The position numbers were made by a program, and so were the translations under genes. From Thermoplasmata archaeon M9B1D (GTDB lineage: Archaea; Thermoplasmatota; E2; DHVEG-1), in contig MUGC01000005.1 of the NCBI GenBank assembly GCA_002900535.1, positions 1 through 55,446 on the forward strand: a DNA stretch of 55,446 nucleotides. Reading direction: 5' to 3'. Below are positions 11,280-55,446 of the stretch, one piece after another (positions within the stretch are counted from its first letter, which is position 1; every line of letters starts with the position of its first letter). The notes beneath the pieces were generated by a model. That model was given only the letters and a program-made list of their open reading frames with translations, did not search any database and was not told the origin of the DNA.

Positions 11280-11764
11280 TAAATCTTCTCCTTTATACGC
11301 ATGTTTTTTAATAGTTTTTTTACTTCTTCAAAAATTTTTTTAATTGGAGGTAATCCTAATTTTTCTCGTTTTTTATTATCAAAATCTTCTATAATGTTCA
11401 ATCGGCCAAATGTACTAATTATTCTTGCTTGTCCCCTAAAAAAAGGGTGAATATATCCTTCTTTTACTGCAATGTTTTTTAATGCCATCATAATTTTTGT
11501 TAATTCTACATTCTGCGGGCAACGATCATCACAGGTACAACATGTTGAACAAAGCCATATAAAATCACTTTTTAAAACTCGATCTCTCATACCTAAGAGT
11601 ATCATTCGAATGATTTTACGAGGGTTGTATGTTTCATCAATTTCACGAACAGGACAGCTTGCTGTACAAGTACCACAGGCAAAGCACTTTGTAATATTTA
11701 TTCCACCTGTTTCTGCGGCTACTTCATATTTAAAATTATGATCTAACTCTTTTGAATCAATCAT
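11279..11764 (-). CDS. hdrC: heterodisulfide reductase subunit C (2x[4Fe-4S])
   Basis: 161 aa. Motifs CFACGTCTASCPV and CSTCCTCDDRCPQ are present. It overlaps both neighbours (1 nt and 4 nt). Confidence 0.8.
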   Translation of the reverse strand: MIDSKELDHNFKYEVAAETGGINITKCFACGTCTASCPVREIDETYNPRKIIRMILLGMRDRVLKSDFIWLCSTCCTCDDRCPQNVELTKIMMALKNIAVKEGYIHPFFRGQARIISTFGRLNIIEDFDNKKREKLGLPPIKKIFEEVKKLLKNMRIKEKI

Positions 11765-18776: not shown

Positions 18777-19538
18777 ATGGCTAAGAAACCAAAGATTGGT
18801 GTATTCAAATTAACAGGTTGTGCAGGTTGCCAGATGGAAATATTTCGTATGGAAGATGAATTTTTGGATTTAATAAAATTATTTGATATTAGTTACTGGA
18901 AGATGGCTAAAAGGGATAATGATGATAAAGATTTAGACATTGCTCTAATTGAAGGTGGAATATCAACACCATGGGAAATTGAAGAAATCAAATGTATCAG
19001 AAAAAATACTAAATTTTTAGTTGCATTTGGCGACTGTGCAATTGGTGGTTGTATTCCAAGTATTCGCAATTGGATTCCTCAAATGGAAAGCGAAGAAATT
19101 GTTTATCCCGACCCATCAAAGATATGTTCCACCAAAGTACATGGTATTGGTGAATATGTAAAGGTCGATGCAGAATTAAAAGGATGTCCACCTCATCGAA
19201 AAACAATTCTTGAACTACTCAAATCTGCTCTTTTAAAAATTAGACCAAGACTTAGACAACATCCGGTTTGCGTAGAATGTAAATTTCAAGGTAATGCATG
19301 TTTGATTACCAGTAATAAATTGCCATGTATGGGACCTGTTATTAGTGGCGGTTGTGGTGCAATTTGTCCAACGCTTGGCAGAATATGTGAGGGTTGTTTT
19401 GGTCCAATGAGTAACCCAAACGCTTCTGCTCTTGCAAATATATTTAGGGACATTGGTCTAAATGATGAAGATATAAAACGTAAATTCAGGAAGTACTCAG
19501 GTATGAGCCCAGAATTTAGACTGGAGGCTGGACACTAA
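18777..19538 (+). CDS. hydD: [NiFe] hydrogenase small (delta) subunit, group 3b type
   Basis: 253 aa. It has the N-terminal KLTGCAGCQMEI motif and several distal Cys clusters. There is a 1-nt overlap with the large-subunit ATG. Confidence 0.8.
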   Translation: MAKKPKIGVFKLTGCAGCQMEIFRMEDEFLDLIKLFDISYWKMAKRDNDDKDLDIALIEGGISTPWEIEEIKCIRKNTKFLVAFGDCAIGGCIPSIRNWIPQMESEEIVYPDPSKICSTKVHGIGEYVKVDAELKGCPPHRKTILELLKSALLKIRPRLRQHPVCVECKFQGNACLITSNKLPCMGPVISGGCGAICPTLGRICEGCFGPMSNPNASALANIFRDIGLNDEDIKRKFRKYSGMSPEFRLEAGH

Positions 19539-20802
19539 TGACTGAGAAAACAATTAAAGTTGACTATATCGCACGAGTTGAAGGTCAAGGTGCAATTAGT
19601 ATAGATATAACAAAATATGGTAAAGTTGAAAATTTACAGTTTAAAATATTTGAACCGCCTCGTTTCTTTGAATCTTTTCTTGTTGGAAGAAAATATGATG
19701 AGGTGATGGAGCTTACAAGTAGAATATGTGGTATTTGTCCTGTTGCACATCAAATAACAGCGTTACGTGCTGTTGAAAATGCTATGGGCATAGTTATTAG
19801 CAATCAAACAAGAGATCTTAGAAAGCTTATGGCAATTAGTGCGCGCATATTCAGAGTAATGTTCTCAGCATGTATTTTTTAAGTCTACCTGATCTAATGG
19901 GTTATGAAAGCATTATTGCCATGGTGAAAGATCATTTGGATATTGTTAAAAGAGCTTTAATGCTTAAGAAACTCGGTAATGATATCATACAATTAATTGG
20001 TGGACGATCAGTTCATCCAGTTACAATGATTGTTGATGGTTTTACATCGATTCCTAGTAAAAAAAAGTTTGAAGTTATTAGAAAACGCCTTGTTGACGCC
20101 AAAAAAGTTGCTTTTGAAACCGTTGATATTTTCGCAAATATAAAAATTCCAGATTTCACTCGTAAATGTGAACATGTTGCTATTTCTAATTCTAAAAGTT
20201 ATGCTATAAACGAGGGGCGTTTAAAATCAACTGGAGGAATTGACATCGATGAGACAAACTATCGGGATTATATTTTTGAAAAACAAAAACCGTATTCTAC
20301 TGCTCTGCATAGTTATATTAAAAATCGTGATTCTTTTATGGTTGGACCCTTACCACGGGTTAATCTTAACCTTAAACAGATGTCAGATGATGCAAGAAAT
20401 ACTGCTGGAAATTGTGGTATGAAATTTCCTAATTATAATCCTTTTGTTTCTCATCTTGCAAGAGCAATAGAGCTAGTTCATGATATCGATGAATCCATTG
20501 AAATTATTGAGCGTTTACCACTAAAAGAGGAACATAGTACTCACATGTGCAAATCTGGTTTTGGAGCAGCAATAACTGAAGCCCCACGTGGAAGTCTATA
20601 TCATAGCTACGTTTTAAATAACAATGGAGTTGTCAAAAAAGCAGATATTGTTCCGCCTACTGCTCATAATGCATATAACATTGAAAAAGATATGAATGAG
20701 TTCGTTCAAACAATAATTGATGATCCATTGGATAAAATTACTTTAAAATGTGAAATGCTTGTTAGAGCATATGATCCTTGCATTTCTTGTTCTGCTCACT
20801 AA
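19538..20802 (+). pseudogene. hydA: [NiFe] hydrogenase large (alpha) subunit, group 3b type, split by a frameshift at (GC)3 19841..19846
   Basis: ORF 19538..19882 carries L1 RICGICPVAH. ORF 19870..20802 (-1 frame) carries C-terminal DPCISCSAH. The second frame is already open from 19840 as CAHIQSNVLSMYFLSLPD. 114 plus 310 aa sums to a normal alpha-subunit length. Confidence 0.8.
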
Positions 20803-24512: not shown

Positions 24513-25337
24513 CTATTTTTCTCCAAGTACCTTAATCATGCTAAGTATCTGACCATCTGTAAAACCCAAATGACCAATAGCTTGATTCAAGCAAGCTGCA
24601 GCACAAGAGCCACAACCTTTACAGAGTGCTTCATTTACTTCCGCTACAAGAACTTTATGTCCAAATCGATCTTTTTCAACAAGTTCAATCGCTTTATATG
24701 GGCATACCTCAACACAGAACCCGCAACCACGGCACAACTCTTCATTAACAGTTGCAATTGTCGCCTCAATTTCAAGCTTCTTTTTAGATAAAATATCGGT
24801 GGCACGTGATGCTGCTCCACTTGCTTGAGCAACTGTGTCGGGAACATCTTTTGGACTTTGGCAGCAACCGGCAAGAAAGATTCCATCTGTAAATGTATCA
24901 ACAGGTCTTAGCTTTGGATGTGCCTCTAAAAAGAACCCATCAGCACTCTGATTAATATTTAAAATTCGGGCAATTTCTTTTGAATCGTTACGAGGTACAA
25001 GACCAGCTGCAAGAACAACTAAATCTGCCTCAATATCTGGATGACCTTTAGCTTTTACAACAGCTTTAGCACCTTTTTGCTCGACTTTTATAGGATCATC
25101 AAGTTCACGGCGGCGATAATTAACATTTTCACCTTTAACACGGTTATAAAACTCTTCAAAGCCTTTCCCAAAAGCACGTACATCGGTATAATAAATTGTA
25201 AGATCTGCATCAGGGATTTTATCCCTGACCATATGAGCCTGCTTTGCTGTATACATACAACAAACACGACTACAGTACTCATTACCCTCTTTGTCACGGC
25301 TGCCTACACATTGAATAAATACAACTTTTTTACAAAT
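24513..25337 (-). CDS. hdrA: 3' segment (-1 frame) of the interrupted hdrA::gltD-like gene: HdrA C-terminal FAD-domain half plus 2x[4Fe-4S] ferredoxin
   Basis: The track ORF 24513..25256 begins MYTAKQAHMVRDK. The frame is open upstream to 25337 and reads ICKKVVFIQCVGSRDKEGNEYCSRVCCMYTAKQ, which is the conserved HdrA motif. It is colinear with, and partly identical in DNA to, the 3' end of 28095..29987. Confidence 0.75.
   Translation of the reverse strand: MCKKVVFIQCVGSRDKEGNEYCSRVCCMYTAKQAHMVRDKIPDADLTIYYTDVRAFGKGFEEFYNRVKGENVNYRRRELDDPIKVEQKGAKAVVKAKGHPDIEADLVVLAAGLVPRNDSKEIARILNINQSADGFFLEAHPKLRPVDTFTDGIFLAGCCQSPKDVPDTVAQASGAASRATDILSKKKLEIEATIATVNEELCRGCGFCVEVCPYKAIELVEKDRFGHKVLVAEVNEALCKGCGSCAAACLNQAIGHLGFTDGQILSMIKVLGEK
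25189..25333. repeat. 145-nt tract 100% identical to 28771..28915 (hdrA paralogs)
   Basis: Compared base by base by eye. The flanks drop to mismatched paralog-level similarity. The tract ends exactly at the frame break of the 25304..28123 gene. Confidence 0.85.
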
Positions 25338-28123: not shown

Positions 28124-29987
28124 CTATTCCATCTATTTGTGCGATAATTTGTTTAACAGCAAAATGTCTCATTGAAATCGCGCCAGACGGACACGTAGAT
28201 GCGCAAGAACCGCATCCTTTACACATAACTTCGTTTACTCGCATAACGCCTGCTTTTTCATCAAATTCAAGAGCAGAATAAGGACACATCCTTTCACAGA
28301 CTTTACATCCACTGCATAAATCTTCATTAATAGTAGATGTAATTGCTTCAACCTCAACTTTACCTTGTGCAAGCGGTTCAGATGCGCGAACTGCTGCACC
28401 ACTTGCTTGAGCAACAGCATCAGGAATATCCTTTGGCCCTTGGCAGCAGCCAGCAAGAAAGATTCCATCTGTAAATGTATCAACAGGTCTTAGCTTTGGA
28501 TGTGCCTCTAAAAAGAACCCATCACTACTTTGACTAATATTTAATACTCGTGAAAACTCTTTAGCATCTTCTTTTGGAACTAACCCTACTGCTAGAACTA
28601 CAAGGTCTGCCTCAATATCAGAATAACCCTTTGCCTTAACAACTGTTTTATCGGCATTCGTTACAACCTCGATTGGATCATCAAGTTCACGGCGGCGATA
28701 ATTAATATTTTCACCTTTAACACGGTTATAAAACTCTTCAAAGCCTTTTCCAAAAGCCCTGACATCCGTGTAATAAATTGTAAGATCTGCATCAGGGATT
28801 TTATCCCTGACCATATGAGCCTGCTTTGCTGTATACATACAACAAACACGACTACAGTACTCATTACCCTCTTTGTCACGGCTGCCTACACATTGAATAA
28901 ATACAACTTTTTTACCATTGAGTACATTTTCACATGTTCCGTAACCATACTTGGGTTTTGTAAGAGGATCAAAAATATCATAACCTGTAGCAACAACAAT
29001 AGTTCCAACATCGATTGTGATTATTTCTTCTTCTTGACTAAAATCTATTGCTTCACGGTCACATGCCTCTTTACATAAAGGATGATCTCCGCATTTCCCA
29101 CGTTTAACCATTAAACAATTATTTGGATCAATTGTATATTTCAAAGGAACTGCCTGAGGAAATGGGACATAAATTGCACTACGTTTGCTAAGTTTCATGT
29201 CAAACTCATTAGGAATTCTTCCATGAAGACGACATGATTCAGCACAAACCCCACATCCAACACATTTATCTATATCAACGTAACGTGGTTTCTTTTTAAT
29301 TTTTACTTTAAAGTTACCAATATAACCATCAATATTTTCAACTTCCGAATAAGAAAGCAATTCGATGTTTGGATGCCGAGCAACATCGACCATTTTAGGA
29401 GTCAAGATACAAGCAGAGCAATCCATAGTTGGAAAAGTCTTATCAAGCTGAGCCATATGACCGCCAATACTTGGAGATCGTTCAACAAGATAAGTTTTGA
29501 AACCTTTATCAGCAATCTCAAGTGATGCCTGAATACCGGCAATACCACCACCAATCACAAGAGCCTTTGGTATTACACTTACCTCTTTTTTCTCAAGGGG
29601 CTCAAGAAATTCAGCTCGGCAAACAGCACCAGTAATAAGTTCAATTGCTTTTTCAGTTGCTACATCCTTGTCTAAATGAACCCAACTACAATGCTCACGT
29701 ATATTTACCATTTCAAAAAAATAAGGGTTTAAACCTGCTTCTTCAACAGCGGCTCTAAATGTTGGTTCATGCATACGAGGAGAGCAACTTGCTACAACAA
29801 CCCGATCAAGTTTTAACTCTTTTATATCTTTTTTAATGAGTTCTTGCCCTGGATCAGAGCACATATACTTGTAAAATCTACTAACAGCAACATTTGGAAT
29901 TTTCTCAATTTCTTTTGCAACTTTTTCAACATCAACTGTTGCTGCGATGTTGATTCCACATTGGCAAGTATATACTCCGATCTTCAT
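28095..29987 (-). CDS. hdrA: HdrA (single-core, canonical domain order: N-domain, FAD core with inserted ferredoxin, C-terminal ferredoxin)
   Basis: 630 aa. Motifs KIGVYTCQCGINIA, VIGGGIAGIQAS, DKTFPTMDCSAC, CVGCGVCAESC, IQCVGSRDKEGNEYCSRVCCMY, CSGCKVCERMCP and CKGCGSCASTCP are present. It lacks ~26 residues present in the other in-window HdrA cores (see findings). Confidence 0.85.
   Translation of the reverse strand: MKIGVYTCQCGINIAATVDVEKVAKEIEKIPNVAVSRFYKYMCSDPGQELIKKDIKELKLDRVVVASCSPRMHEPTFRAAVEEAGLNPYFFEMVNIREHCSWVHLDKDVATEKAIELITGAVCRAEFLEPLEKKEVSVIPKALVIGGGIAGIQASLEIADKGFKTYLVERSPSIGGHMAQLDKTFPTMDCSACILTPKMVDVARHPNIELLSYSEVENIDGYIGNFKVKIKKKPRYVDIDKCVGCGVCAESCRLHGRIPNEFDMKLSKRSAIYVPFPQAVPLKYTIDPNNCLMVKRGKCGDHPLCKEACDREAIDFSQEEEIITIDVGTIVVATGYDIFDPLTKPKYGYGTCENVLNGKKVVFIQCVGSRDKEGNEYCSRVCCMYTAKQAHMVRDKIPDADLTIYYTDVRAFGKGFEEFYNRVKGENINYRRRELDDPIEVVTNADKTVVKAKGYSDIEADLVVLAVGLVPKEDAKEFSRVLNISQSSDGFFLEAHPKLRPVDTFTDGIFLAGCCQGPKDIPDAVAQASGAAVRASEPLAQGKVEVEAITSTINEDLCSGCKVCERMCPYSALEFDEKAGVMRVNEVMCKGCGSCASTCPSGAISMRHFAVKQIIAQIDGIVAHKSKGGK
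28771..28915. repeat. partner copy of 25189..25333
   Basis: Identical 145-nt string, offset 3582 nt. Confidence 0.85.
29774..29913. repeat. partner copy of 27860..27999
   Basis: Identical 140-nt string, offset 1914 nt. Confidence 0.85.
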
Positions 29988-31875: not shown

Positions 31876-32859
31876 CTAAAGTATGAATTCTTCTGGATCA
31901 TCCGGTTTAAACATAGATAAAAGTGGTTTTACATCAACATCTAGACCTGCTCTGTAGTCAAACAACTCAAGTACTTCTTTTTCTAGCTTTTTATTTAATT
32001 TAACTAAAGGAATCTCAGCGGGACATACTCTTTCACATTCACCGCAGTCAATACAACGACCAGCAAGATGAAAAGCTCGCATAATATTCCAAGCAGTGTT
32101 TTCTGAAACATTCACCGACCTGCGAATCCATTGAGGATTAAGTTGATCTACCATACATTCTTTACAATAGCACATAGGACAAACATTACGACAAGCATAA
32201 CAACGAATACATTTTTCAAACTGTTTTTCCCAGTATTCCCATTTTTCTTTTAAAGATTTTTTTTCAAAAGATTCAACGTCTTTATAATTGGGTTTACCGG
32301 TAGTTTTAATTTCAGACCCTACCAGTACATCATAAATAATCGGGTTAGGAAACTGGCATTGTTTGCATTTATCCATTAATAATTCTTCTTTTGGAACTTT
32401 GTGAGTTTTCCCGTCTATTTTAATTACAAAGTTATTTGCATCTTCATCGATATCTACAGTTTTTGTCTGATTTGGAAATTTTTTATTTATCTTTTTAGGA
32501 TCAATAACACCCGTGCAAGGAATCCCGATTATAACCACATCATCGCGATTCAAACCTTTTTCTTGGATGATTTGAACTATAGCCCGAGAATCACATCCTT
32601 TAACAATAACGCCAACTTTACGTTTATCTTCCTCTGCTCCTTTTCGCAAAGGTAGTTTTTCTTGAAGCATTAGAAAAACAGTAAGATTATGAACACATAA
32701 AGGATTGAAAATTAATCTTTCTACATCATCGGAGGATGTTATAAACAAAGGTGTAACCTGGAATCCATGTGTTCCTTTTTCCCAGCCGATTACGTATTTT
32801 ACATCATCGCGGTTTATGATTTTTTCTGTGCTTTCTCTAAGTTTTTTAAGGTCTACCAA
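31876..32859 (-). CDS. Fe-S oxidoreductase subunit, FlxC-like (2x[4Fe-4S])
   Basis: 327 aa. Motifs VKGCDSRAIV..IIGIPCTG, CIRCYACRNVCPMCYCKEC and CIDCGECERVCP are present. The call follows from its position between the MvhD-like and FlxB-like genes. Confidence 0.5.
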   Translation of the reverse strand: MVDLKKLRESTEKIINRDDVKYVIGWEKGTHGFQVTPLFITSSDDVERLIFNPLCVHNLTVFLMLQEKLPLRKGAEEDKRKVGVIVKGCDSRAIVQIIQEKGLNRDDVVIIGIPCTGVIDPKKINKKFPNQTKTVDIDEDANNFVIKIDGKTHKVPKEELLMDKCKQCQFPNPIIYDVLVGSEIKTTGKPNYKDVESFEKKSLKEKWEYWEKQFEKCIRCYACRNVCPMCYCKECMVDQLNPQWIRRSVNVSENTAWNIMRAFHLAGRCIDCGECERVCPAEIPLVKLNKKLEKEVLELFDYRAGLDVDVKPLLSMFKPDDPEEFIL

Positions 32860-33293
32860 GAATTCGACCTCCTTATCTGATGCGTTGGACCAAGTTTACG
32901 AATATCATCTGTTACTTCTCTGATTACATCTGCAAATTTTTTACCTTCTGCTGCTGACACCCAGGTCATACGAACTCTTCGTTCATCTATCCCTAGATAT
33001 TCAAGTAATTTTTTTAAAACAGCAATACGACGACGGGCAAAATAATTACCTTGAATATAATGACAATCACCCGGGTGACATCCACCTATTAATACCCCAT
33101 CAGCTCCCTCATGTAGAGCATTTACTATAAACATAGGGTTAACACGACCAGAACACATAACACGTATTATTTTCACATTTGGTGGATACTCTATTCTACT
33201 GGTACCTGCTAAATCAGCTCCAGCATAAGAGCACCAATTACATAAAAAAGCTACAATATTAGGCTCAAAACTATCTTTTGACATATGCTTCAA
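32853..33293 (-). CDS. mvhD: MvhD/FlxD-type [2Fe-2S] adaptor protein (copy 2)
   Basis: 146 aa. Motifs FLCNWCSYAGADLAGTSR, VMCSGRV and GGCHPGDCHY are present. It is close to 35677..36096 in sequence. Confidence 0.8.
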   Translation of the reverse strand: MKHMSKDSFEPNIVAFLCNWCSYAGADLAGTSRIEYPPNVKIIRVMCSGRVNPMFIVNALHEGADGVLIGGCHPGDCHYIQGNYFARRRIAVLKKLLEYLGIDERRVRMTWVSAAEGKKFADVIREVTDDIRKLGPTHQIRRSNSW

Positions 33294-34239
33294 TTGGTCC
33301 CATGTTTTCTAATTCTTTGACAAATTTATTAATCTCTTGTTGTAATTTTGCTGATTCACCTGTTGAAAACCAATCAAGTTTTAAACGTTTAGGATTAATA
33401 TTTAATTCTTTTAAAATATTTTTAAGAAGAATAAGTCTTCTGCGGGTTTTATAATTTCCATCATGGTCACATTCTTCAGGTGGACAACCAGCTACCATAA
33501 CACCCCATGCACCTGATTCAAATGCATCAAGAATTAATTCAGGGGCAACACGACCGGAGCACATTGTAACAATTATACCATATGGTGTTTTAACAAGTGT
33601 TTCTGTTTCACTTAGTTGCATACCAGGAAAAATCGAATAATTGCAAGCAAACACGAGTAATTTTTTATCATCTTTTTTCAAAATTTCTTTCACGCTTTCA
33701 TGAAGTTCAGGTAACGTTACATTACATCCTTCTTTTTGAGAAATAGCACCAGAAGGGCAAGCTGCAAGACAGAGCCCACAGCCGCGACATTCAACCTTGT
33801 CTACTTCGATTTTCTTTTTGTCTTTTCCTTTATCAACTATTTTGAGTGCATCATACTTACATAGAGGTACGCATACACCACAGACACTACATAGATCTTC
33901 ATCAATTTGAACAATAGTGCCTTGAACTTCAAAACCTGCATTGATTAAATCAGCACGTGCATCGGTTAAGATATCTGTTACTGGTACTCCAGCAGAACAA
34001 TTATCGCTACAGTTTTTACAATAAAAACATTGAAAGATTTTATCAACAACTTCCTGTGTAGGTGCTATCTTTCCAGTAATCATTCCGTGAACCATTAAAA
34101 GTTTTCCACGAGGGGTATCTGATTCCCAGCTGTAAGATTTAAATAAAGGACAAAGTTCATAACAATATCCACAACGAATGCATTTATCAAGCTCATTTTC
34201 CCATTTTTTTGAGCGTTTAAAATCGACTTTTTTGACCAT
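33271..34239 (-). CDS. fusion protein: GlcF/HdrC-type N-terminal 2x[4Fe-4S] domain, ferredoxin domain and degenerate MvhD-like domain
   Basis: 322 aa.
- CIRCGYCYELCP..TPRGK..CFYCKNCSDNC (GlcF/HdrD-type N-domain).
- CSVCGVCVPLC..CRGCGLCLAACP (ferredoxin).
- FACNYSIFPG..TMCSGRV..AGCPPEECDHDGN (MvhD-like, with CNWC degraded to CNYS). Confidence 0.65.
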   Translation of the reverse strand: MVKKVDFKRSKKWENELDKCIRCGYCYELCPLFKSYSWESDTPRGKLLMVHGMITGKIAPTQEVVDKIFQCFYCKNCSDNCSAGVPVTDILTDARADLINAGFEVQGTIVQIDEDLCSVCGVCVPLCKYDALKIVDKGKDKKKIEVDKVECRGCGLCLAACPSGAISQKEGCNVTLPELHESVKEILKKDDKKLLVFACNYSIFPGMQLSETETLVKTPYGIIVTMCSGRVAPELILDAFESGAWGVMVAGCPPEECDHDGNYKTRRRLILLKNILKELNINPKRLKLDWFSTGESAKLQQEINKFVKELENMGPIEAYVKR

Positions 34240-34241
34240 GA

Positions 34242-35675
34242 TTACTTTACCACCCTATATCGTAAATCTGTTGCTTTCACCCAGTCATCTGGAGCATCCA
34301 TGAGTTTATGTGGATTTAAAATATTATTTGGATCAAGTGCTTTTTTAATAGCACGCATCATAGGAATTATATCTGCTCTTGCTTTTTTCCAAGGAGGCGC
34401 CTTAGATAAGCCAATTCCATGCTCAGCAGACGTTACACCGCCAACTGAATGAATATAATCATAAAGTTCTTCTATTACCTTATCAGCATCCTTCCATTGA
34501 TCCTTCTTTTTTGGATCAAGCATAATCTTTGTATGAATTACTCCAGATCCACAATGACCATAAACTGCCATAATTACATTATTTCGTTTAGCTATTTCAT
34601 GGATTTTTGCAGCTGCTTCAGCAATTTTTGAATTTGGAACACCCATGTCATCTGCAAGGTCGGTACAGATGATTCCCTCTTTATATCTAGAAAGCGCGGC
34701 AAAAAGTTTTTTTCTTCCACTAAAGATACGTTTTCTTTCCTCTGCATCGTAGCTAAGTTCTATTCCGAAACCATTATGTGCTTTACAGATTTCTTTCATT
34801 TTATTAATTTCAAAATCAACTGCTTCTTTCACATTACCATCTGCTTCAAATAAGATAATTGCTCCAACCTCTTTCAATCCAAGATCTAATGCCTTATTAA
34901 CAGCAACAATTCCAATTCCATCCATCAGCTCAAGCATAGAAGGCTGACACCCGCTAGTGATAATTTCTGATATAGCATTTCCTGCGTCTTCCAATTTATT
35001 AAAATTTGCAACACCTAGACAACGAAATTTTGGAAGCGGATAAATTCTTATAGTTGCCTCAACAACAATACCAAGAGTACCCTCGGAACCAACGATAAGG
35101 CGTTCAAGCTGATAACCCGAAGAATGAACACGGGTATTTGCACCAAGGTTAACTAGGCTGCCATCTGCAAGTACAACTTTTAAACCTAAAATATAGTCGC
35201 GAGTGGCACCATATTTCACAGATCTAACACCTGAAGCATTAGCTGCAATCTCACCACCAATTGTGGCAATTCTACTAGATGCTGGTGCTGGCGGATAAAA
35301 AAAACCATATGGCAAAAGCGCACGATTTAAATCATCATCAACAACACCAGGTTCCACCCGAACAAGTACATCTCCAGGTTTTATCTCAAGAATATGATTC
35401 ATTTGTTTCATATCCATGACAATTCCACCGTCGATAGGGACTGCATGGCCACTGGTACCAGTACCTGCACCACGTGGAATAACAGGAATCCTGTTTTTAT
35501 TTGCATATCTCATAATTTTTTGAACTTGTTCAATTGTTTTTGGACGAACTACAACATTAGGCATTGCTTGATGAACTGATGCATCTCCAGAATATGCATA
35601 TAAATCCACGGGGTTGTCAGTTGCATTTTCAGATCCAACGATTTTTTTAAGGTTTTCAACATCAACTTTTTTCAT
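34242..35675 (-). CDS. glcD: FAD-linked oxidase, GlcD/D-lactate dehydrogenase family
   Basis: 477 aa. It has a PCMH-type FAD-binding N-domain (VVRP.T.EQV..I..A....IPV.PRGAGTG.SG) and a C-terminal FAD-oxidase domain (SAEHGIG). Confidence 0.8.
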   Translation of the reverse strand: MKKVDVENLKKIVGSENATDNPVDLYAYSGDASVHQAMPNVVVRPKTIEQVQKIMRYANKNRIPVIPRGAGTGTSGHAVPIDGGIVMDMKQMNHILEIKPGDVLVRVEPGVVDDDLNRALLPYGFFYPPAPASSRIATIGGEIAANASGVRSVKYGATRDYILGLKVVLADGSLVNLGANTRVHSSGYQLERLIVGSEGTLGIVVEATIRIYPLPKFRCLGVANFNKLEDAGNAISEIITSGCQPSMLELMDGIGIVAVNKALDLGLKEVGAIILFEADGNVKEAVDFEINKMKEICKAHNGFGIELSYDAEERKRIFSGRKKLFAALSRYKEGIICTDLADDMGVPNSKIAEAAAKIHEIAKRNNVIMAVYGHCGSGVIHTKIMLDPKKKDQWKDADKVIEELYDYIHSVGGVTSAEHGIGLSKAPPWKKARADIIPMMRAIKKALDPNNILNPHKLMDAPDDWVKATDLRYRVVK

Positions 35676-35676
35676 A

Positions 35677-36096
35677 TTATGCGATCTCCTTCAGAGGTGT
35701 TGGTCCCAATTTTTTTAATTGATTTACAAAATCAGTTACTACTTGTGCAAACTTTTGTCCCTCTGAAGCAGACACATATTCAAATCGTACTCGCTCAGGT
35801 TCTACACCCATATCATTAAGAAATTTTTTCAAAAGCCTAATCCTTCGATTAGTTTTGTAGTTTCCAGATTGGTAATGGCAATCACCAGGGTGACAACCAG
35901 CAATGAGAACACCATCAGCACCCTTTCGAAGTGCTTCAAGGATAAAAACCGTGTCAACCCGACCGGAGCACATTACTCTTATGGATTTGATATTTGGTGG
36001 ATATTTTATCCTACTAGTACCTGCTAAATCAGCTCCAGCATATGAGCACCAGTTACATAGAAAACCAATAATGTTTGGTTCAAATTCTTTTGCCAT
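35677..36096 (-). CDS. mvhD: methyl-viologen-reducing hydrogenase delta subunit
   Basis: 139 aa. Motifs FLCNWCSYAGADLAGTSR, VMCSGRVD and AGCHPGDCHY are present. Confidence 0.85.
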   Translation of the reverse strand: MAKEFEPNIIGFLCNWCSYAGADLAGTSRIKYPPNIKSIRVMCSGRVDTVFILEALRKGADGVLIAGCHPGDCHYQSGNYKTNRRIRLLKKFLNDMGVEPERVRFEYVSASEGQKFAQVVTDFVNQLKKLGPTPLKEIA

Positions 36097-36108
36097 AATT
36101 TTTTCACC

Positions 36109-36582
36109 TCAAATATCTAATTTTATCTTTTTTATCTCATTAAGTGTTAATTCTACGGCATTTGGAACAGCCGCAGCAATATCTTTGCTTAGTTTTTCCC
36201 TAAACTCACAAGGGATTTCTTTCATCATTATTCCAATGATTATGATATCTTTAGGAATTCTGGTTTCTCCCATTTTTTTTGCCATTTCAATGGCTTCTAT
36301 CAGCGATACATCATGTGGGTTGCATGAATGCATCGTGTTGAAATCGCTAAGAGGAATTCTTTTTACTTCCCCGTTTTCTGCATCTTTTGATTTTACTGCA
36401 TCAATGATTATCGCTCTATCGTATCCTATTATTAGATCTAACAGGTTCATACCACCTGTTATTGCTTCGTCAAGTGTTACATCTGGGTCATTGATTTGTT
36501 TTTTCAGCTCGTTTACTACGTGTATTCCTACACCATCATCGCCAAGAATGAGATTTCCCACTCCCAGTACGATGGTTTTCAT
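36109..36582 (-). CDS. [NiFe] hydrogenase maturation endopeptidase (HycI/FrhD/HyaD family)
   Basis: 157 aa. It has the N-terminal VLGVGNLILGDDGVGIHV motif plus later D and H ligands. Confidence 0.8.
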   Translation of the reverse strand: MKTIVLGVGNLILGDDGVGIHVVNELKKQINDPDVTLDEAITGGMNLLDLIIGYDRAIIIDAVKSKDAENGEVKRIPLSDFNTMHSCNPHDVSLIEAIEMAKKMGETRIPKDIIIIGIMMKEIPCEFREKLSKDIAAAVPNAVELTLNEIKKIKLDI

Positions 36583-36595
36583 AGATATTTTTCCT

Positions 36596-37987
36596 CTACA
36601 AATTTTGTCTTAGTGTTTTGTATAATTTTTTGTTATGGTCAAATATTTTTACCTCTAGTGGCATACCACCAGGTAATGTATGTGTTGCACATGCAAAACA
36701 TGGGTCATATGCGCGAAATGCCATTTCTACCATGTTTAGTGTTTTGTTGCTGACATCTCCTTTTTTAATTACCCCTTTTGCTGCGTCTCTTACACTCATA
36801 TTTATTGCACCAGCATTGTTTGTTGTTGCAACAATAAGATTTGCTTTGTCAATAAGTCCATCTTTTGTTAGTTTATAGTGATGAATTAATGTTCCTCTTG
36901 CTGCTTCTGTTACGCCCATTCCTTCACCTGGTTCACCTACAGGGTTTCTGATTTTTTGGCTGGTGATTTCAGGGTCATTTACCAGTTCTTTTGCTCTTTC
37001 AGTTGCATATAAAAGTTCGATGAGTCTAGCCCAGTGAAATGCAAGAGTACTGTTGACTGCTTTCCCACCTAGAGTTTCATACATTCTTTTGTATTCTTTA
37101 TCTGCGAGTGGTGTTGCCATACCTTCTGCTGCATTAAGTCTTCCTAGTGGTCCTACACGATATATCCCACTGTCTTTTCCATCTTTGAATCCTTTCCAAC
37201 CTACAGATTTTAGATAAGTGAATTTTATATATGTCCATTCCTCAACGTGTTCTGCTATATGTTTATAATAGTCTTTTACATCAAATTTTAACTTTTCTTT
37301 TCCTTGCTGGTCAGTTACTCTAATTTTTCCGTCATAAAAGTTCACCTTGTTATTTTTGTCAACAAGCCCCATGTTATATGTTGCAAGTTGATATGGGTCA
37401 CTTAGAATCAAGTTAACATAGTCTTTATTTTTAAGCACTATATCATCAAATAGTTTGAGTGAAAATTGTGCAAATTTGATACATGAGTCAACCATTGTTT
37501 TTATATCTTTTACTTCATCTTTGTTTAAACCTTTTGAAACACCGCCAGGTAAACCACACACAGGATGTGTTGCCTTACCGCCAAGAATTGCTGTAATTTT
37601 TTGACCGTATGCTCTGTGTTTTATTACTTCTTTTCCGATTTCCACTCCTGCTTTTTCAATTACACCTATTACATTTCGTTTTGCTGGTGGTGCATCAGGA
37701 CCAACAACAAAATCAGGCCCCCCAAGATAATAGAAATGTAATATATGATCATAGATATAGTAACCCACATACATTAATTCACGAAGTTTTTTAGCAGCAC
37801 TAGTTGGCTCTACATTGAACGCTGCATCAAGGGCTTTTGTTGATGCAAAATGATGAGCAACAGGAAAACCACGAAGTTCAGGAATCTGTAAATATGCGTT
37901 TTCAACATCGCCTTTGTCGTCCAAAAATATACTTATTTTTCCATGACCTTCAAGACGGGTTATCGGGTCTATTGTAACTGTTCTCAT
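36596..37987 (-). CDS. mvhA: MvhA-like [NiFe] hydrogenase large subunit (group 3c context) lacking the N-terminal RxCGxC motif
   Basis: 463 aa. It has the N-terminal ITRLEGHGKISIFLDD and the C-terminal DPCFACATH plus a cleavable tail. After ELRGF the sequence jumps straight to PVAHH, so there is no CxxC. Confidence 0.8.
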   Translation of the reverse strand: MRTVTIDPITRLEGHGKISIFLDDKGDVENAYLQIPELRGFPVAHHFASTKALDAAFNVEPTSAAKKLRELMYVGYYIYDHILHFYYLGGPDFVVGPDAPPAKRNVIGVIEKAGVEIGKEVIKHRAYGQKITAILGGKATHPVCGLPGGVSKGLNKDEVKDIKTMVDSCIKFAQFSLKLFDDIVLKNKDYVNLILSDPYQLATYNMGLVDKNNKVNFYDGKIRVTDQQGKEKLKFDVKDYYKHIAEHVEEWTYIKFTYLKSVGWKGFKDGKDSGIYRVGPLGRLNAAEGMATPLADKEYKRMYETLGGKAVNSTLAFHWARLIELLYATERAKELVNDPEITSQKIRNPVGEPGEGMGVTEAARGTLIHHYKLTKDGLIDKANLIVATTNNAGAINMSVRDAAKGVIKKGDVSNKTLNMVEMAFRAYDPCFACATHTLPGGMPLEVKIFDHNKKLYKTLRQNL

Positions 37988-38988
37988 TTTTTCATCACTC
38001 TCCTGTTTATAAGAGCAGAGGGCAGACCATATTTGTAAAACGTCCCAATAGGATCTACAACTTGATCTATCAATTTTTGTACTTCTTCATCACTCATTTT
38101 TTCTTCACCCTCTATACCGAGAATACTAGCAAGTGCAGATATCATCTTAGCACCTTGATCAAGCGAGTTGGGTGTTGGCCCTCCACAACCAGTACATGGC
38201 ATATTTGCATCTAAACATCGTGCACTACATCCACCACGGGTTGCTGGACCAAGGCAAATAATACCTTGTTCAAGAAGGCATTTTTCTTCTATTTTATCTA
38301 CTTCATATACTCTTTTTATCTCCTTGATTTTTTTCTCGGTTTTTTCAAATCTGCATTCATCACATACAGATTTCATTGGGCCAATAATTGATCCTTTTGG
38401 TGGTAGTTTATTTTCAACAATTGCACCTACAGCAGTCATAATTTGATCGGGTGTAGGTGGACAACCAGGTAGATAATAATCAACATCAACTGTTTGATCC
38501 AATGTTTTTACAGTATCATAAAACTCTGGAAGTGTAAGAGTACCCTCCTTTACTTTAACAGATGTTTTTGGAACAATTTTTTTAGGATTATCAGTCGATG
38601 GATTATCTAAATAAGCAACTCTAAAGACTTCCTCACGGTTTGCAACATTTGCAAGACCAGGTATCCCACCGTTAACTGCACATGCCCCAAATGCCACCAT
38701 AAATTTGGATTTCTTACGCAATAGTTTTGCGATATGTTCTTGTTCTTCAGTTCTTATTGACCCATTGAAGAAACAAACATCTATTTGTTTATCCTTCATT
38801 GCTTCTACATCTTTGTACTTGAAATCCATTGCAACTGGCCAGAATAAAATATCTGCAATGCCAATTACATCTAGTATTTTTTCATCGATATCAAGTACAG
38901 CGATTTCACATCCGCCACAACTTGCGGCCCAATAAAAAGCAAGTTGCAGTTTCTTTTTTGCTTCACTTTTCTTTTTTTCTTTTGTCAT
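37984..38988 (-). CDS. mvhG: MvhG-like [NiFe] hydrogenase small subunit
   Basis: 334 aa. It has WAASCGGCEIAVLD and multiple distal Cys motifs (CDEC, CLGPATRGGC, CTGCGGP). Confidence 0.8.
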   Translation of the reverse strand: MTKEKKKSEAKKKLQLAFYWAASCGGCEIAVLDIDEKILDVIGIADILFWPVAMDFKYKDVEAMKDKQIDVCFFNGSIRTEEQEHIAKLLRKKSKFMVAFGACAVNGGIPGLANVANREEVFRVAYLDNPSTDNPKKIVPKTSVKVKEGTLTLPEFYDTVKTLDQTVDVDYYLPGCPPTPDQIMTAVGAIVENKLPPKGSIIGPMKSVCDECRFEKTEKKIKEIKRVYEVDKIEEKCLLEQGIICLGPATRGGCSARCLDANMPCTGCGGPTPNSLDQGAKMISALASILGIEGEEKMSDEEVQKLIDQVVDPIGTFYKYGLPSALINRRVMKK

Positions 38989-39010
38989 ATACTACCACCT
39001 TTTTCAAATC

Positions 39011-39892
39011 TTATTTTCTATAAACTCCCTTTTTTTTCAATAATAAATTAGGATCAACAGCATGTTGTTCAAATCCACATACTGTTGGATCAAGCCCTAG
39101 TGCAATTGCGATTAGCTGGGTGTAATAATAAACAGGTATTTGTTTGTATCCCCTATGTAGTTTTTCTGCTTCTTTTCCACGTACATCAATGTTGAACCTA
39201 CAAAGCGGGCAAGACAAAACAATAGCATCAGCCCCGCGTTCAAGGGCAAAGTTTGTAATTCTATGAGCACGGTTTGAAACAATTTCCTTATGCTCAACAG
39301 TATGATAAGAACCACAGCATTCAATATTAAATGGATTGTCAACTATATCTGCACCAAGGACCTTTAAAAGATCAGAGAGAATTTGTGGATCTTCTGCATC
39401 ATCAATTGCGACTTCTCTTGGACGAAGCATCATACAACCATAATATGGCATTATTTTCATTCCGCGAAGTGGATTTTTAACCATTTTTTTAAGAGTTTTA
39501 AATCCTACTTCGTCACGTAAAAACTCAAGGAAATGATAAACTGTAACCGTACCCTTGTAATCGTTTTCCTGGTCCATAAACGCATTCAATGTCTCAAGAT
39601 CATCTGCCTTTTCTTTAACACGAAGATTGGTTTGTTTTAGTGTATTGCAACACATATCGCAAAGTGTTAAAACTTTATCTTCACCCTGATCTTCAACATG
39701 AATAAGGCTACGCAGAGGTGCCAAGTGTCGCATTAAATCATCATCTGATAAGGATGACACAACACCGCAACAGGTCCAGTCATCCATTTCAACCATCTCA
39801 TGGCCTAACTTTTCCATTATTGCAAAAGCTGTTTTTTCCAAATTTTTTGCAGATGTCTTAAGTGTACAACCTGGGAAATATAACATTTTCAT
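39011..39892 (-). CDS. hdrB: heterodisulfide reductase subunit B (two CCG domains), copy 2
   Basis: 293 aa. Motifs PGC..TCCG..CDMC and YGC..ECCG..CPLC are present. Confidence 0.85.
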   Translation of the reverse strand: MKMLYFPGCTLKTSAKNLEKTAFAIMEKLGHEMVEMDDWTCCGVVSSLSDDDLMRHLAPLRSLIHVEDQGEDKVLTLCDMCCNTLKQTNLRVKEKADDLETLNAFMDQENDYKGTVTVYHFLEFLRDEVGFKTLKKMVKNPLRGMKIMPYYGCMMLRPREVAIDDAEDPQILSDLLKVLGADIVDNPFNIECCGSYHTVEHKEIVSNRAHRITNFALERGADAIVLSCPLCRFNIDVRGKEAEKLHRGYKQIPVYYYTQLIAIALGLDPTVCGFEQHAVDPNLLLKKKGVYRK

Positions 39893-39897
39893 AGTTA

Positions 39898-40326
39898 TCA
39901 GCCTATGTTTTTTCTAAATAAACTTACAAACGCAATCTGAGGAATTGCCTCTCTTTCCTTTTTTGAGGTTTTTTGAGCATAACTATGATCAATTTTTCTT
40001 CGCAAGATTATTTGACGAAGTGCTTCCATGATTTTTGTGATGTTAATGTCGCGAGGACATCTTTCAGCACAAGTAAAACATGCAGAGCAAAGCCATATGG
40101 TCTTTGAACTCAACACTTCCTGTCGATCAAGAACAACATAACGTATAACTTCATCAGGTGTTAAATCCATATCATCAACATAAGGACAACCCGCAGAACA
40201 TGTTCCACACTGATAACAGCCAAATAAGTTTTCACCACAGATATCTTCAACTTCTTTTACAAGCTCGCCTTTTTTAAAAACAATTTTGCTGATTTCTTTG
40301 TTTTTTGGGAGTTGTTTTCTAGCCAT
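39898..40326 (-). CDS. hdrC: heterodisulfide reductase subunit C, copy 2
   Basis: 142 aa. Motifs CYQCGTCSAGCP and CSACFTCAERCP are present. Confidence 0.8.
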   Translation of the reverse strand: MARKQLPKNKEISKIVFKKGELVKEVEDICGENLFGCYQCGTCSAGCPYVDDMDLTPDEVIRYVVLDRQEVLSSKTIWLCSACFTCAERCPRDINITKIMEALRQIILRRKIDHSYAQKTSKKEREAIPQIAFVSLFRKNIG

Positions 40327-40328
40327 AT

Positions 40329-43300
40329 CTAATTCTCCTTTCCAAGAAGAGCATCTACCATGACTCTGATTTGTTTATTTTTAAATCCTTTTTGTTCAAT
40401 TGCTCCAGACGGACAAGCCGCGGCACACGCGCCACAGCCTTTACATAAAGCTCTGTTAACCGTTGCTACTAGATGGTCAGGTTTATCCTGTCTTGGTTTT
40501 ACTTCAATTGCACTATAAGGACAAATTCCTTCACAAGTCTGACAACCACTACATAAATCATCGTTTACCTCTGCAACTTGACCCTCACCTTTCATTTTCT
40601 CTTGCATTATTGGAATCGCTGCACGTGATGCTGCTCCTTCAGCCTGTGCAATTGAATCAACAAGGTTTTTTGGGTAATGTGCAGCACCACAAAGATATAT
40701 TCCATCTGTAGCAAAATCAAGTGGTCTTATTTTTGCATGAGCTTCTAAGAAAAATCCGCCTGCATCAGCAGGTATTTTAAGCATATTTTTAAGTGTATTA
40801 GTAAGCACTTCACCTTCAGTGTTGACTGTTAGTACTACTAGATCCGCATCAAGAACTAGCTCTTCATTTAGGATGTCGTCATATACCTTAACAGTCATAG
40901 GTCCTTCTTTTGGATCTTTTTTATCAAGTTTTATCTCAGGTTTTTTATCACCAGGATACCTAACTACTGTGACATGATGATTTTTTAAAACATTTGAGTA
41001 ATACTCCTCTTCTTCTTTTCCAAAAACACGCATATCACGATAGAGCAGCCAAATCTTTACACCAGGATATCTCTCAGAAATAAGTTTAGCATTTTTAATT
41101 GCAACACCACAACCTATACGACAGCAATATGGTCGTTTTTCATCCATTGCCCCAGCGCAGTTAACAATAACAACGTTTTTAGGTTTCTTTTTAAGTGTAC
41201 CTTCCTTGATTTTTTCTTCAAGTTCAGTTTGAGATATTATATTTTTATTTTTACCATAATGATATCGACCTTCAAGGTCTATTTCTCTAAAACCAGTTGA
41301 AACAATTATTGTTCCAAACTCAATTTTTCTCTTTTTGCTCTTATGTTTAATTATTCCCTCATAGTTCCCAATAAAACCATCAATGTCAACCAGTTCCGAT
41401 TCTGTCATGACAGTTATAAGTCTATTTTTAGTAACTTGTTTAATCAATGGATCAATAATATCTTTTGCTTTAATATCAGATGGGAACATTGAGTGCAGAT
41501 GTTTAAGTCGTCCACCTAATTCTTTTTCTTTTTCAATTAAATATGATTTAACACCCATATCTGCAAGTGCAAGAGCTGCCTTCATACCTGATACTCCACC
41601 GCCAATCACAAGTACCGATGGAATAATAGAAAATTCTTCTTCACTAAGTGGCTCTAACAGTCGTACTTTAGCAACTGCTGCATTTACAAGATTTATAGCT
41701 TTATCTGTTGCCTTGTCCCAGTCGTCAGAATGAACCCAACTACAGTGATTACGAATATTTGCCATTTCAAACAAATACTTGTTTAAACCTGATTCAAGCA
41801 ATGTATCTTGGAATAAACCACCATGCGTTCTTGGCGAGCAAGCTGCAACAATGATTCTATTAAGTTTTTGATCCTTTATAGTATCGCGTATCTTCTTACA
41901 AGTATCTTCAGAACATGCAAACATCACATGTTCTGCATAAACCACATTTGGTCGCTTTTTGACTTCTTCGGTTACTTTTTCAACATCGAGATAACTGGCA
42001 ATATTTTTACCACAATGACAAATGAAAACACCAATTCTTGGCTCCTCTAAAGATACATCTTTTTCTGGAGGAAAGTCACGACCCACATGTCGTTTTCTGT
42101 CTTTCACTGGTGCGACTGCTTTTGCGGCAGCACCACTAGCCATACTAACGCTGTCGGGGATATCCTTTGGACCCTGTATACATCCTGCTAAAAATATTCC
42201 TGGTTTAGTTGATTGTACAGGGTTTTGTAAAAGTGAATCCTGCTTGAAAAAACCATTTTCATCCACTTCAATTCCAAGGATTTTTGCAATTTTTTTATTA
42301 TCTTTTGCAGGAATAATTGCTGTTGAAAGGACAAGAAGGTCGACTTTATCTTCCTTTACTTTACCAGAAAGCGTGTCTCTGTATCGTATTGTTAAACTCT
42401 TATCCTTGTTTTCATAGACATTAGAGGGGCGACCTCGGATATATTTTACACCCAGATCTTTTGCATGATCATAATATTGTTGGAAATCCTTACCATATGC
42501 TCGGATATCCATATAATAAATATTAATATTAATACCAGGATTTGCCTCTTTTACAATACTTGCCTCTTTAGTCGCATACATACAGCAAACACGGGAACAA
42601 TAGGGATATCCTTCTTGTTCACTACGTGAGCCTACACATTGTATCCAACCAATCTTTTTAGGCTTGTTTAAATCTGAAGGACGGAGTACTTTGCCTGCAG
42701 TAGGGCCAAAACTTGATAAAAGACGTTCGAACTGCATAGCAGTCATAACATTTTCGTATTTACCATAGCCATATTCCTTACGTAATTCACTTGGTTCAAA
42801 TACTTCAAAACCAGTTGCTATAACAATTGCGCCTGCTTTAACCTCGATTTCTTCTGATTTTTCTAGAAAAGTTATTGCCCCTGGCTCACAAACCCTATCA
42901 CAAGCACCACATCCAGTACAATGTTCATGATCAATTGTATAAACAATCGGAACCGCTTGTGGAAACTCTATATAAATTGCTTTTCGAGTTGAAATTTTTT
43001 CATTAAAACTACTAATAACATCCACAGGACAAACCGCGGTACAGTCATCACAACCAGTACATTTGTCTGGATCAACATATTTCGTTTTCTTCCAAATCTG
43101 TGCTGTGAAATCTCCTTTTTTACCTTCTAATTTGTTAAGTTCTGCATAAGTAATAAGTTCAATGTTAGGGTGACGAGCAAGTTCTACCATTTTAGGTGCA
43201 GCTGTACATATACTGCAGTCATTTGTTGGAAAAGTCTTATCTAATTTAACCATTGATCCGCCAATTGTTGAGGTTTTATCAATTATAACTACCTTGTAGC

Positions 43301-43544
43301 CTTTATCAGCGACATCCAGGGCAGATTGCATACCAGAAATCCCAGCACCAATAATTAGCACATCTGAGTCGATTACCCGTTTTTTCTTTTTAAAAGCCAT
43401 CTGCGTTATACCCTTAACTGTTGTCTCAGGCGAAGGCATTTTGTCTTCTAAAATAGCTAGTTCAGGCTCATCTAAAAAGTAATCATCAGCAAGAGGAATT
43501 CCTTGGTCATGATCTATTTTTTGGTTATATCTTCTTGAGGGCAT
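40329..43544 (-). CDS. hdrA: tandem HdrA-HdrA fusion (two FAD cores with complementary accessory domains)
   Basis: 1071 aa.
- Core 1: [76 protein letters not shown].
- Core 2: [14 protein letters not shown] N-domain, [12 protein letters not shown], no inserted ferredoxin, C-terminal [24 protein letters not shown].
- The start is uncertain, because there is a 20-nt overlap with the upstream gene. Confidence 0.85.
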   Translation of the reverse strand: [1071 protein letters not shown]

Positions 43545-52287: not shown

Positions 52288-53589
52288 TTAGACAAGAGGA
52301 TTCACAATACTTCCAAGAAACAGTATTGTTCCTGTTTCTTTATGTTGAATTAAAAACAAAAATGGATGATCGGCATTAAATGTAAGTCTTGAACTTCCAC
52401 CGTCATCAATAGATGTTTTATCCATAACTACGGCTGTTGCAGCAGCAGCTTCTGTTCCTTCTTCACTAACATTAATAAATGCTTTATGCAAAACAGCGCT
52501 AATAAATAAATCAGGACGACCATCAATTCCTGAAAAATCAGCAAAATCACTAAAAGCATCTTGCATTCCAAGTTCTATTAAGTAATCATTAAGCCCATAA
52601 CTTGTTTCAAATTCAAATTTTGGAAGATAAATATCAACTTCAGTTTCATACATCGAATCAATCCATTCGGAAACGCTATCCTTATCAATGGAATTTATCA
52701 CATCTTCTAATTCAACACCTTCTCTTGGTAAAAATATAGTCATAGATATTTCATTTCCAGTATAAGGAAGTTCAATTATCTGCAAATCCTCTGTTTCAGT
52801 ATAATTAAATCTATCTTTTGTCCCAGTTAAACGCATAGTCGGAACTTTGATTAGATTTTCTTCAAAATCCGTAAAATCTCTATCCGTAGTGTTGAGTTCA
52901 TCAAATTTTACTTGCCAGGTTCCTTTGAAATAAATAGCATTAGTTAGAATAAGCATTGTCAAAAATGGATTAATAACATCAGAAGGGACTAGATCTTTTA
53001 TTAAATTATTTGTTTGATCTTCAACCCATTGATTAATTATTTCTGCTGCTTCTTTAGGTTTAGAAAAATCAACTTCTGAAGATATACCACCATAATAAGT
53101 CTCAATAGTATTAATGTATTCATCTAAAAGCTCAAAGTTTTCTCTTACCCACAAAGCATTAGCCGTACTTATATTGTAATCAGTATTTTCATTTAAATAT
53201 TCATATAGGCTTTTCATATATTGATGGAATGAATCATTGTCTTGCTCAATACTAAGAACGCTCTCCATCTCATCAGCTGTATTATTTTTAGCACCCTCGT
53301 ATGTCATGGCAAGCGCTGTAAAAACACTATATGGTGAATAAAAAATATTACCTTCATTAACTGGATCATTGGATATTTTTCTAAACAAATCAAATGCAAA
53401 AGCATTTACTGCATCGTTAAAAGAAGTTTTATTTCCTAAAGCCTCAGGAGTTTCATCTTCAGATTCTTTATTATCGTCAATAGTATTTGAATCAATAAAT
53501 AAATCGCTTGTTAAAACTACAAAAGCAGCACCTAATACTACTAAACTCACGATAATTGCAACTATAGCATTTGATTTCATATCTATCAC
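52288..53589 (-). CDS. serpin (serine protease inhibitor) with N-terminal signal-anchor helix
   Basis: 433 aa. It has a hydrophobic segment AIVAIIVSLVVLGAAFVVL, the serpin motifs FSPYSVFTALAMTYEGA and NAIYFKGTWQVKF, the hinge EEGTEAAAATAVVM, and FNADHPFLFLI. Confidence 0.85.
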   Translation of the reverse strand: MIDMKSNAIVAIIVSLVVLGAAFVVLTSDLFIDSNTIDDNKESEDETPEALGNKTSFNDAVNAFAFDLFRKISNDPVNEGNIFYSPYSVFTALAMTYEGAKNNTADEMESVLSIEQDNDSFHQYMKSLYEYLNENTDYNISTANALWVRENFELLDEYINTIETYYGGISSEVDFSKPKEAAEIINQWVEDQTNNLIKDLVPSDVINPFLTMLILTNAIYFKGTWQVKFDELNTTDRDFTDFEENLIKVPTMRLTGTKDRFNYTETEDLQIIELPYTGNEISMTIFLPREGVELEDVINSIDKDSVSEWIDSMYETEVDIYLPKFEFETSYGLNDYLIELGMQDAFSDFADFSGIDGRPDLFISAVLHKAFINVSEEGTEAAAATAVVMDKTSIDDGGSSRLTFNADHPFLFLIQHKETGTILFLGSIVNPLV

Positions 53590-54882: not shown

Positions 54883-55446
54883 TCATACTCCAATTAAATT
54901 TGCATATTCTAATAGATCAAGTTCCTTCAGTTTTTCTTTTTTTGGCAATCCTTTTTCATCCCAACCTCGAAGACTGTAATACTCTTTTAGACTTTGCTCA
55001 AATCGATCTTTTGTCAAAACTATTCCTTTCGCAGGACCTTTTGTAAATGATTCATTGAAAAGCCTAGGTGGAAGTTTATCACTGTCGGGTTTTAATCCTT
55101 CACGTAAATTGAAAAGCCGTATCAAGTTCCAAATCCGCTCACCACATTTTAGATAGCTTTCAACTGTGTGATTAAAACCAGTTGCAAGATTCCACATATC
55201 AACACAATCTTCTTCTGAAATTGGTGCAAAATCACAAAGAACTAGTGAAAAAAATGATGCTCGCTCATCTTGAACATTCTTTACAATTCCTGCTTTTTTA
55301 TCAAATGAAAATCTTTCAAGTTCAGGATCGTTAAGCTCTGCTCTAACAGTCCAAGCACGCTGGTGACATGCACCCCTATCCGATGTTGCATATGCAAGTC
55401 CCATACCAAATGTACCACGTGGATCATAACCTGGTATATCCATCCC
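54883..55446 (-). CDS. aldehyde:ferredoxin oxidoreductase family (tungstopterin), C-terminal part; 5' end off window
   Basis: The frame is open to the window edge. Motifs DPRGTFGMGLAYATSDRGACHQRA and the C-terminal RGWDEKG.P are typical of AOR domains 2/3. Confidence 0.85.
   Translation of the reverse strand, partial: GMDIPGYDPRGTFGMGLAYATSDRGACHQRAWTVRAELNDPELERFSFDKKAGIVKNVQDERASFFSLVLCDFAPISEEDCVDMWNLATGFNHTVESYLKCGERIWNLIRLFNLREGLKPDSDKLPPRLFNESFTKGPAKGIVLTKDRFEQSLKEYYSLRGWDEKGLPKKEKLKELDLLEYANLIGV

Follow-up and report, generated by a model that had tools for sequence, protein, structure and literature searches.

The window, by which we mean the whole 55,446-nt stretch of DNA that was analysed, belongs to a Thermoprofundales (MBG-D) MAG from Mai Po mangrove sediment and carries a gene for an MvhA-like, group 3c [NiFe]-hydrogenase large subunit together with the features listed in Table 1. 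The cluster around this gene contains a double hdrA, hdrC, hdrB, mvhG, mvhA, a protease gene, mvhD, a gene for a GlcD-like FAD oxidase and genes for Fe-S/MvhD fusion proteins. MvhG, MvhD and the HdrABC-like genes, the neighbours by which an MvhA is recognized, all lie within positions 35677-43544, and the order of the hdr and mvh genes is kept in relatives at ~80% DNA identity; the locus is an ordinary Thermoprofundales gene cluster. It resembles the MvhA/VhuA systems of group 3c (the Mvh-Hdr complex; 5ODC chain F, 7T2R chain D) in the whole-length homology of the large subunit, in its C-terminal DPCxxCxxH motif and tail, and in the adjoining mvhG, mvhD, HycI-type protease and hdrABC-like genes. 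It differs from them in that the window copy of the large subunit, as assembled, is without the N-terminal RxCGxC pair, which the sister allele of the same strain has, and in that the cluster adds the GlcD-like FAD oxidase and extra MvhD-fusion Fe-S proteins, both conserved in relatives. A search for hyp maturation genes that covered the window, the rest of the genome lying outside it, found none.

Table 1. Features of the mvhA locus and of the other assembly junctions in the window.
Feature	Positions	Strand	Remarks
Window-private GC duplication (GCGCGC vs GCGC)	19841..19846	+	Group 3b large subunit split: 19538-19882 (114 aa) and 19870-20802 (310 aa)
HdrA-like paralog 2, third window-private deletion, 61 nt	25332..25333		Frameshift; ORFs 25304-28123 and 24513-25256
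HdrA-like paralog 1, second window-private deletion, 72 nt	28914..28915		Ends exactly at position 20|21 of a 164-nt exact repeat
mvhD (FlpD), intact	35677..36096	-	
HycI-type maturation endopeptidase gene, intact	36109..36582	-	
mvhA-like group 3c [NiFe]-hydrogenase large-subunit gene, as assembled	36596..37987	-	463 aa, without 23 codons including RICGVC
144-nt block, inferred contig-overlap block	37722..37865		Window loses 69 nt upstream (gene orientation), MaiPo-9 contig 40 nt downstream
Junction of the 69-nt loss	37865..37866		Missing nt CGAGCG...GGTGTATG relative to four sister assemblies; no microhomology
mvhG-like small-subunit gene (Oxidored_q6), intact	37984..38988	-	Exact protein also on sister contigs
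hdrB-like (CCG domains), hdrC-like (Fe-S) and 1071-aa double HdrA-like genes	39011..43544	-	Upstream of mvhGA
Terminal 144 nt of the window contig	55303..55446		Directly adjoined by the 82-nt deletion of the MaiPo-9 contig (55221-55302)

The GlcD-like FAD-linked oxidase (34242-35675, minus strand) sits directly downstream of mvhD; next come an Fe-S/MvhD fusion (33271-34239) and a further MvhD (32853-33293). This arrangement at 32853-36096 (minus strand) is conserved in relatives (L001 and L006) and suggests that a dehydrogenase of the lactate or glycolate type is coupled to the Hdr/Mvh module. A second Hdr-like set occupies 5965-11764 (minus strand), where genes for an HdrB-like (10398-11279) and an HdrC-like protein (11279-11764) have a 1478-aa protein immediately downstream (5965-10401) with three flavin/pyridine-nucleotide oxidoreductase-like regions and Fe-S domains; the set adjoins genes for a glycine-cleavage H protein and a lipoate-protein ligase. 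The window also carries a serpin-family gene (52288-53589, minus strand), with Pfam PF00079 on the identical IMG gene call.

The mvhA open reading frame translates as MRTVTIDPITRLEGHGKISIFLDDKGDVENAYLQIPELRGF on the N-terminal side of the junction (ending in YLQIPELRGF), continues directly with PVAHHFASTKALDAAF, and reads RAYDPCFACATH near its end. Its product matches Pfam PF00374 (NiFeSe_Hases) with E = 2.5e-31, the solved MvhA 5ODC_F with E = 2.6e-95 and 9SW2_F with E = 1.4e-91. Alignment with 11 close homologs, to which it is 88-96% identical outside the gap, shows that it is without exactly 23 columns, ERFxQGRRAEDMPQITSRICGVC, which are present in 11 of 11. The absent residues, ERFAQGRRAEDMPQITSRICGVC, correspond to 69 nt and include both N-terminal Ni/Fe cysteine ligands. 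Compared with the full allele the nucleotide breakpoint falls at 37866|37865, while at the codon level the junction is F41|P42, at 37865/37864, precisely where the preliminary description had placed it. That description had also reported the loss of ~23 residues with both N-terminal cysteines from an otherwise complete gene set, and both parts of the claim are borne out, the loss by the alignment of homologs and the integrity of the remainder by the L2 motif DPCFACATH (residues 428-436), the 27-residue tail that follows it as a predicted cleavable extension, and the protease, MvhG and MvhD genes, all of which were found intact.

The L1 motif, RxCGxCxxxH, was not found in the window mvhA open reading frame, and R.CG.C motifs elsewhere in the window occur only in other genes. 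On both 5ODC_F and 7T2R_D the window protein aligns as two stretches that skip the RxCGxC region, and the full-length allele of the sister assemblies described below aligns as a single stretch through the motif (E = 5.5e-111 against 5ODC_F). The motif had thus been registered correctly in the preliminary description, and a mis-registration with the cysteines elsewhere in MvhA is ruled out by the clean gap against the 11 homologs, the alignments to the solved structures and the lack of any R.CG.C in the frame. Selenocysteine recoding, an intein and programmed editing were likewise rejected, as the sequence is missing, not inserted, and its flanks are colinear. The true mvhA gene is most likely 1461 nt long and encodes 486 aa.

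The gap was seen in no other sequence. All 120 homologs among the matches listed from a search of billions of proteins are 486-487 aa long and are without the gap. Across GTDB species representatives, 80 of 80 loci carry the 23-residue insert with RICGVC; these loci come mostly from Thermoplasmatota / MBG-D MAGs, and R.CG.C was confirmed by regular expression in 78 of them and by direct translation in the other two. A look-up among ~15 billion proteins placed the exact 463-aa sequence on one 55,446-nt NCBI contig only. The degenerate junction pattern PELRGFPVAHHF gave no matches in genome contigs; a scan of metagenome contigs also gave none, in a collection that is without the IMG sister contigs (their exact 60-mer likewise had no match there). 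Orthologs 75-87% identical to the window protein occur in MAGs labelled Heimdallarchaeota, Promethearchaeota, Bathyarchaeota and Woesearchaeota (L017, L030, L034, L050, L052, L057, L060, L061, L064, L067, L069), and the 90%-identity cluster of the window MvhA also includes MFW6120652.1, whose MAG bears the label 'Petrotogales bacterium'. These oddly labelled occurrences could be mis-binned Thermoprofundales contigs or lateral transfers.

Sister contigs of the same strain were retrieved by exact look-up of the window MvhG and protease proteins. The 69 nt are present in four of four same-strain assemblies, namely IMG 3300010413 (L007/L010/L014), IMG 3300009506 (L015), Logan SRR29850985 (L008) and Logan SRR14699975 (L009), whose flanks are 99.9-100% identical to the window, and the sister allele carries the L1 motif as SRICGVCPVAHH. 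In IMG 3300009506, the MaiPo-8 assembly, MvhA is 486 aa long and shows no differences from the window at the 463 shared residues; the same protein is deposited as PNX52130.1 from 'Thermoplasmata archaeon M8B2D' (MAG M8B2D). The preliminary description had proposed looking for a longer allele containing the ~69 missing nucleotides, and at the level of independent assemblies such an allele exists, on four same-strain contigs.

Two further features of the relatives were noted around mvhA. Both Logan contigs that hold the 5' part of the gene (L008 and L009, from different runs) end at window ~37203-37242, near which another contig (L011) restarts with a 31-nt overlap; these ends suggest a k=31 branch, caused by a strain variant, in both samples. 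In a relative from IMG 3300056923 (L006), identity to the window is 94% across mvhG and the initial 122 nt of mvhA (37865-38754), and only ~82% from the motif region onward, a step that points to a mosaic produced by recombination among strains, with its boundary near the L1 motif.

Comparison of the window with the MaiPo-9 contig from IMG 3300010413 over window 19699-55446 (~35.7 kb) revealed no substitutions and eight indel differences, an unnatural mutation spectrum. Private to the window are the losses of 69 nt in mvhA, of 72 nt at 28914|28915 and of 61 nt at 25332|25333, and the gain of GC at 19841-19846. Private to the MaiPo-9 contig are losses of 40 nt in mvhA (window 37682-37721), 70 nt (28721-28790), 62 nt (25147-25208) and 82 nt (55221-55302, in an AFOR gene), and the MaiPo-8 contig from IMG 3300009506 has indels of its own of -23 and -37 nt. 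Of the nine larger indels, only two have lengths divisible by three; that the mvhA gap keeps the frame is therefore no sign of selection. Microhomology or direct repeats, as expected for replication slippage, were sought at the 69-, 40- and 82-nt junctions and none were found, which fits butt-joined contigs better than replication slippage.

These indels break or alter other redox genes in the assemblies that carry them. The preliminary description had taken the group 3b large subunit of the window as an intact comparison for MvhA; this does not hold, as that gene is itself split by the frameshift of the extra GC, and its frame is intact in the MaiPo-9 IMG contig. The HdrA/GltD-like paralogs at window 24513-29987 (minus strand) are ~82% identical to each other. 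Merging the three assemblies restores intact HdrA-like open reading frames of 657 and 1223 codons, where any single assembly yields three to four fragments. On the MaiPo-9 contig (Ga0136851_10004029, IMG 3300010413, L014) the gene calls give mvhA as 115 + 349 aa and the AFOR gene as 117 + 476 aa, with the HdrA-like genes likewise in pieces; the MaiPo-8 contig (Ga0118657_10003302, IMG 3300009506, L015) has a whole mvhA (486 aa) but deletions of its own, of 23 and 37 nt, that split the HdrA-like genes.

The provenance of the assemblies is documented: IMG 3300010413 and 3300009506 are the MaiPo-9 and MaiPo-8 samples, sequenced as 150-bp paired reads and assembled into scaffolds by idba v1.1.1 with --mink 65 --maxk 145 --step 10, and the MAGs were obtained by re-assembling recruited reads in the same way (Zhou et al., 2019, PMC6461988). 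Given this provenance, it is most likely that IDBA assembled one set of reads twice, once into the window and once into the MaiPo-9 contig. All indels between the two lie at a boundary of a 144-nt block, 144 being maxk-1 for a maxk of 145, and this holds at all four sites. In mvhA, the losses of the two contigs flank one such block on opposite sides; at the end of the window contig, the 82-nt deletion of the MaiPo-9 contig abuts the terminal 144 nt; and the extra GC of the window is found 143-146 nt inside the end of the MaiPo-9 contig, which falls at window 19699. Once repaired, the HdrA-like paralogs have a 164-nt exact repeat in common. Position 144 of this repeat directly precedes the MaiPo-9 deletions, and position 20 is where the window deletions stop. 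These are the breakpoints to be expected from a graph with k=145, in which contigs coming from upstream would terminate at position 144 of the repeat and those leading downstream would begin at position 21. A paralog sharing the mvhA 144-nt block was sought in the window and not found; the block's only similarity was to the L1-motif region of the group 3b gene (43 nt, 79% match). The idea that deletion sizes equal 144 minus the (k-1) of an earlier k step fitted only two of nine and was dropped.

Real deletions that arose independently would neither stop at one and the same homologous base of two paralogs nor lie exactly k-1 apart in mvhA. The geometry is proof that the assembler made one or both of the mvhA deletions; it falls short of strict proof for the 69-nt loss in particular because a real deletion allele would also give k-1 branch points. 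The gap is private to one assembly, the full allele is present in an identical background, and the k-1 geometry recurs at every indel. We therefore regard the 69-nt gap, with high though not complete confidence, as a local assembly error at a scaffold join in the MAG contig and not as a property of the organism's gene.

Local assembly errors of this kind are prominent in IDBA-UD scaffolds, and scaffold-end overlaps tied to the largest k have been described (Chen et al., 2020, Genome Res, PMC7111523). The lesions in the window resemble those errors in being short consensus stretches that differ between assemblies of the same reads, lie at largest-k contig overlaps and leave genes broken or altered. 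Whereas the published cases were recognized by missing read support (PMC7111523), the evidence here is comparative, from four sister assemblies, and geometric, from the 144-nt blocks. In accordance with such an error, the gap is found in one assembly and is absent from the others of the same population, with its breakpoints at the boundaries of largest-k overlaps.

The exact step inside the assembler we infer to be as follows. Two contigs, P (...A-D-B) and Q (B-C-E...), would truly overlap by B, the 144 nt of maxk-1, and would be joined in scaffolding at a distance estimated from read pairs. The IDBA scaffolder would skip bases when the estimated distance is negative, without verifying the overlap. 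An over-estimated overlap would then cause the bases just past B in the appended contig to be dropped with the match unchecked. Joining P to Q with 184 instead of 144 would lose C (40 nt) and give the MaiPo-9 IMG contig, a product of the whole-sample assembly, while traversal in the opposite direction with 213 instead of 144 would lose D (69 nt) and give the window. An under-estimate, 142 for 144, would duplicate two bases, as in the extra GC.

The alternative that fares best is a real 69-nt in-frame deletion allele, minor or specific to the sample, which would kill MvhA in some MaiPo-9 cells and which the re-assembly followed. The junction sequence needs a source, and de Bruijn contigs normally require read support; the loss preserves the reading frame and takes out a compact element; and, with one sample behind both the window and the MaiPo-9 assembly, a different allele could have been picked in each. 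Against this, the second mvhA deletion, in the sister assembly, lies exactly maxk-1 = 144 nt away, a distance that biology could not know, and the window contains three further lesions of the same kind at the edges of k-1 blocks, two of them at homologous positions of two paralogs. The background without a single substitution, the junction without microhomology and the Logan contigs of two other runs, which cross the site unbranched, also speak against a real allele, and we consider it improbable. A wider version, in which the deletion is genuine and segregates in the Mai Po Thermoprofundales population and, together with a GC-slippage frameshift in the group 3b gene, marks a sub-population losing both cytosolic hydrogenases, seems to us a shade less probable again. 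Even if real, the 69-nt deletion would be a fresh null allele with no divergence or evolutionary history behind it.

It is scarcely credible that the window encodes an evolved MvhA-like subunit without a [NiFe] site, retained to serve the Hdr complex as a scaffold or electron relay by analogy with NuoD or Ehr, although the remainder of the protein is intact, as are its C-terminal motif, the protease, MvhG, MvhD and the Hdr genes. The gap is conserved in no other sequence (the 120 listed homologs, the 80 genome loci and other contigs), and there is no clade-wide loss. The same strain has the full motif with no other amino-acid differences, and outside the indels there are no nucleotide differences from MaiPo-9, which leaves no time for any adaptation. 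Without a metal site, neither the C-terminal ligands nor the protease would serve a purpose, and the gap is explained by assembler geometry. NuoD of complex I and the Ehr-type group 4 relatives do share the [NiFe] large-subunit fold with incomplete metal ligands. In those large subunits, however, the loss of ligands is ancient, conserved across clades and affects both motifs, whereas in the window it affects one motif on a single contig and an identical strain retains it.

The preliminary description had left three readings side by side, namely a recent inactivating deletion, a population variant or assembly artefact, and a non-catalytic role. The second stands, and within it the artefact; the absence of the gap from the 120 listed homologs and 80 genomes, the full same-strain allele and the k-mer geometry weigh against the first and the third.

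Taken together, these results give the gap no biological significance; its value is that of a data-quality warning on this MAG and on the sister IMG contigs. The 463-aa protein sits in NCBI nr as an ordinary entry, the window contig has at least three more assembler-made lesions in redox genes, and gene catalogues built from the IMG sister assemblies inherit such errors, in the form of split mvhA, AFOR and HdrA-like genes. Where two assemblies of one population are at hand, the k-1 spacing test offers a cheap, read-free way of recognizing these errors. Hydrogen metabolism, pseudogenisation or 'non-catalytic hydrogenases' inferred from these MAGs would mislead. Almost certainly the organism's own MvhA is normal, complete with its four cysteine ligands, and, judging from its sequence, the protein with the motif restored and both CxxC pairs in place should presumably be a standard group 3c large subunit beside MvhG, MvhD and the HdrABC-like proteins.
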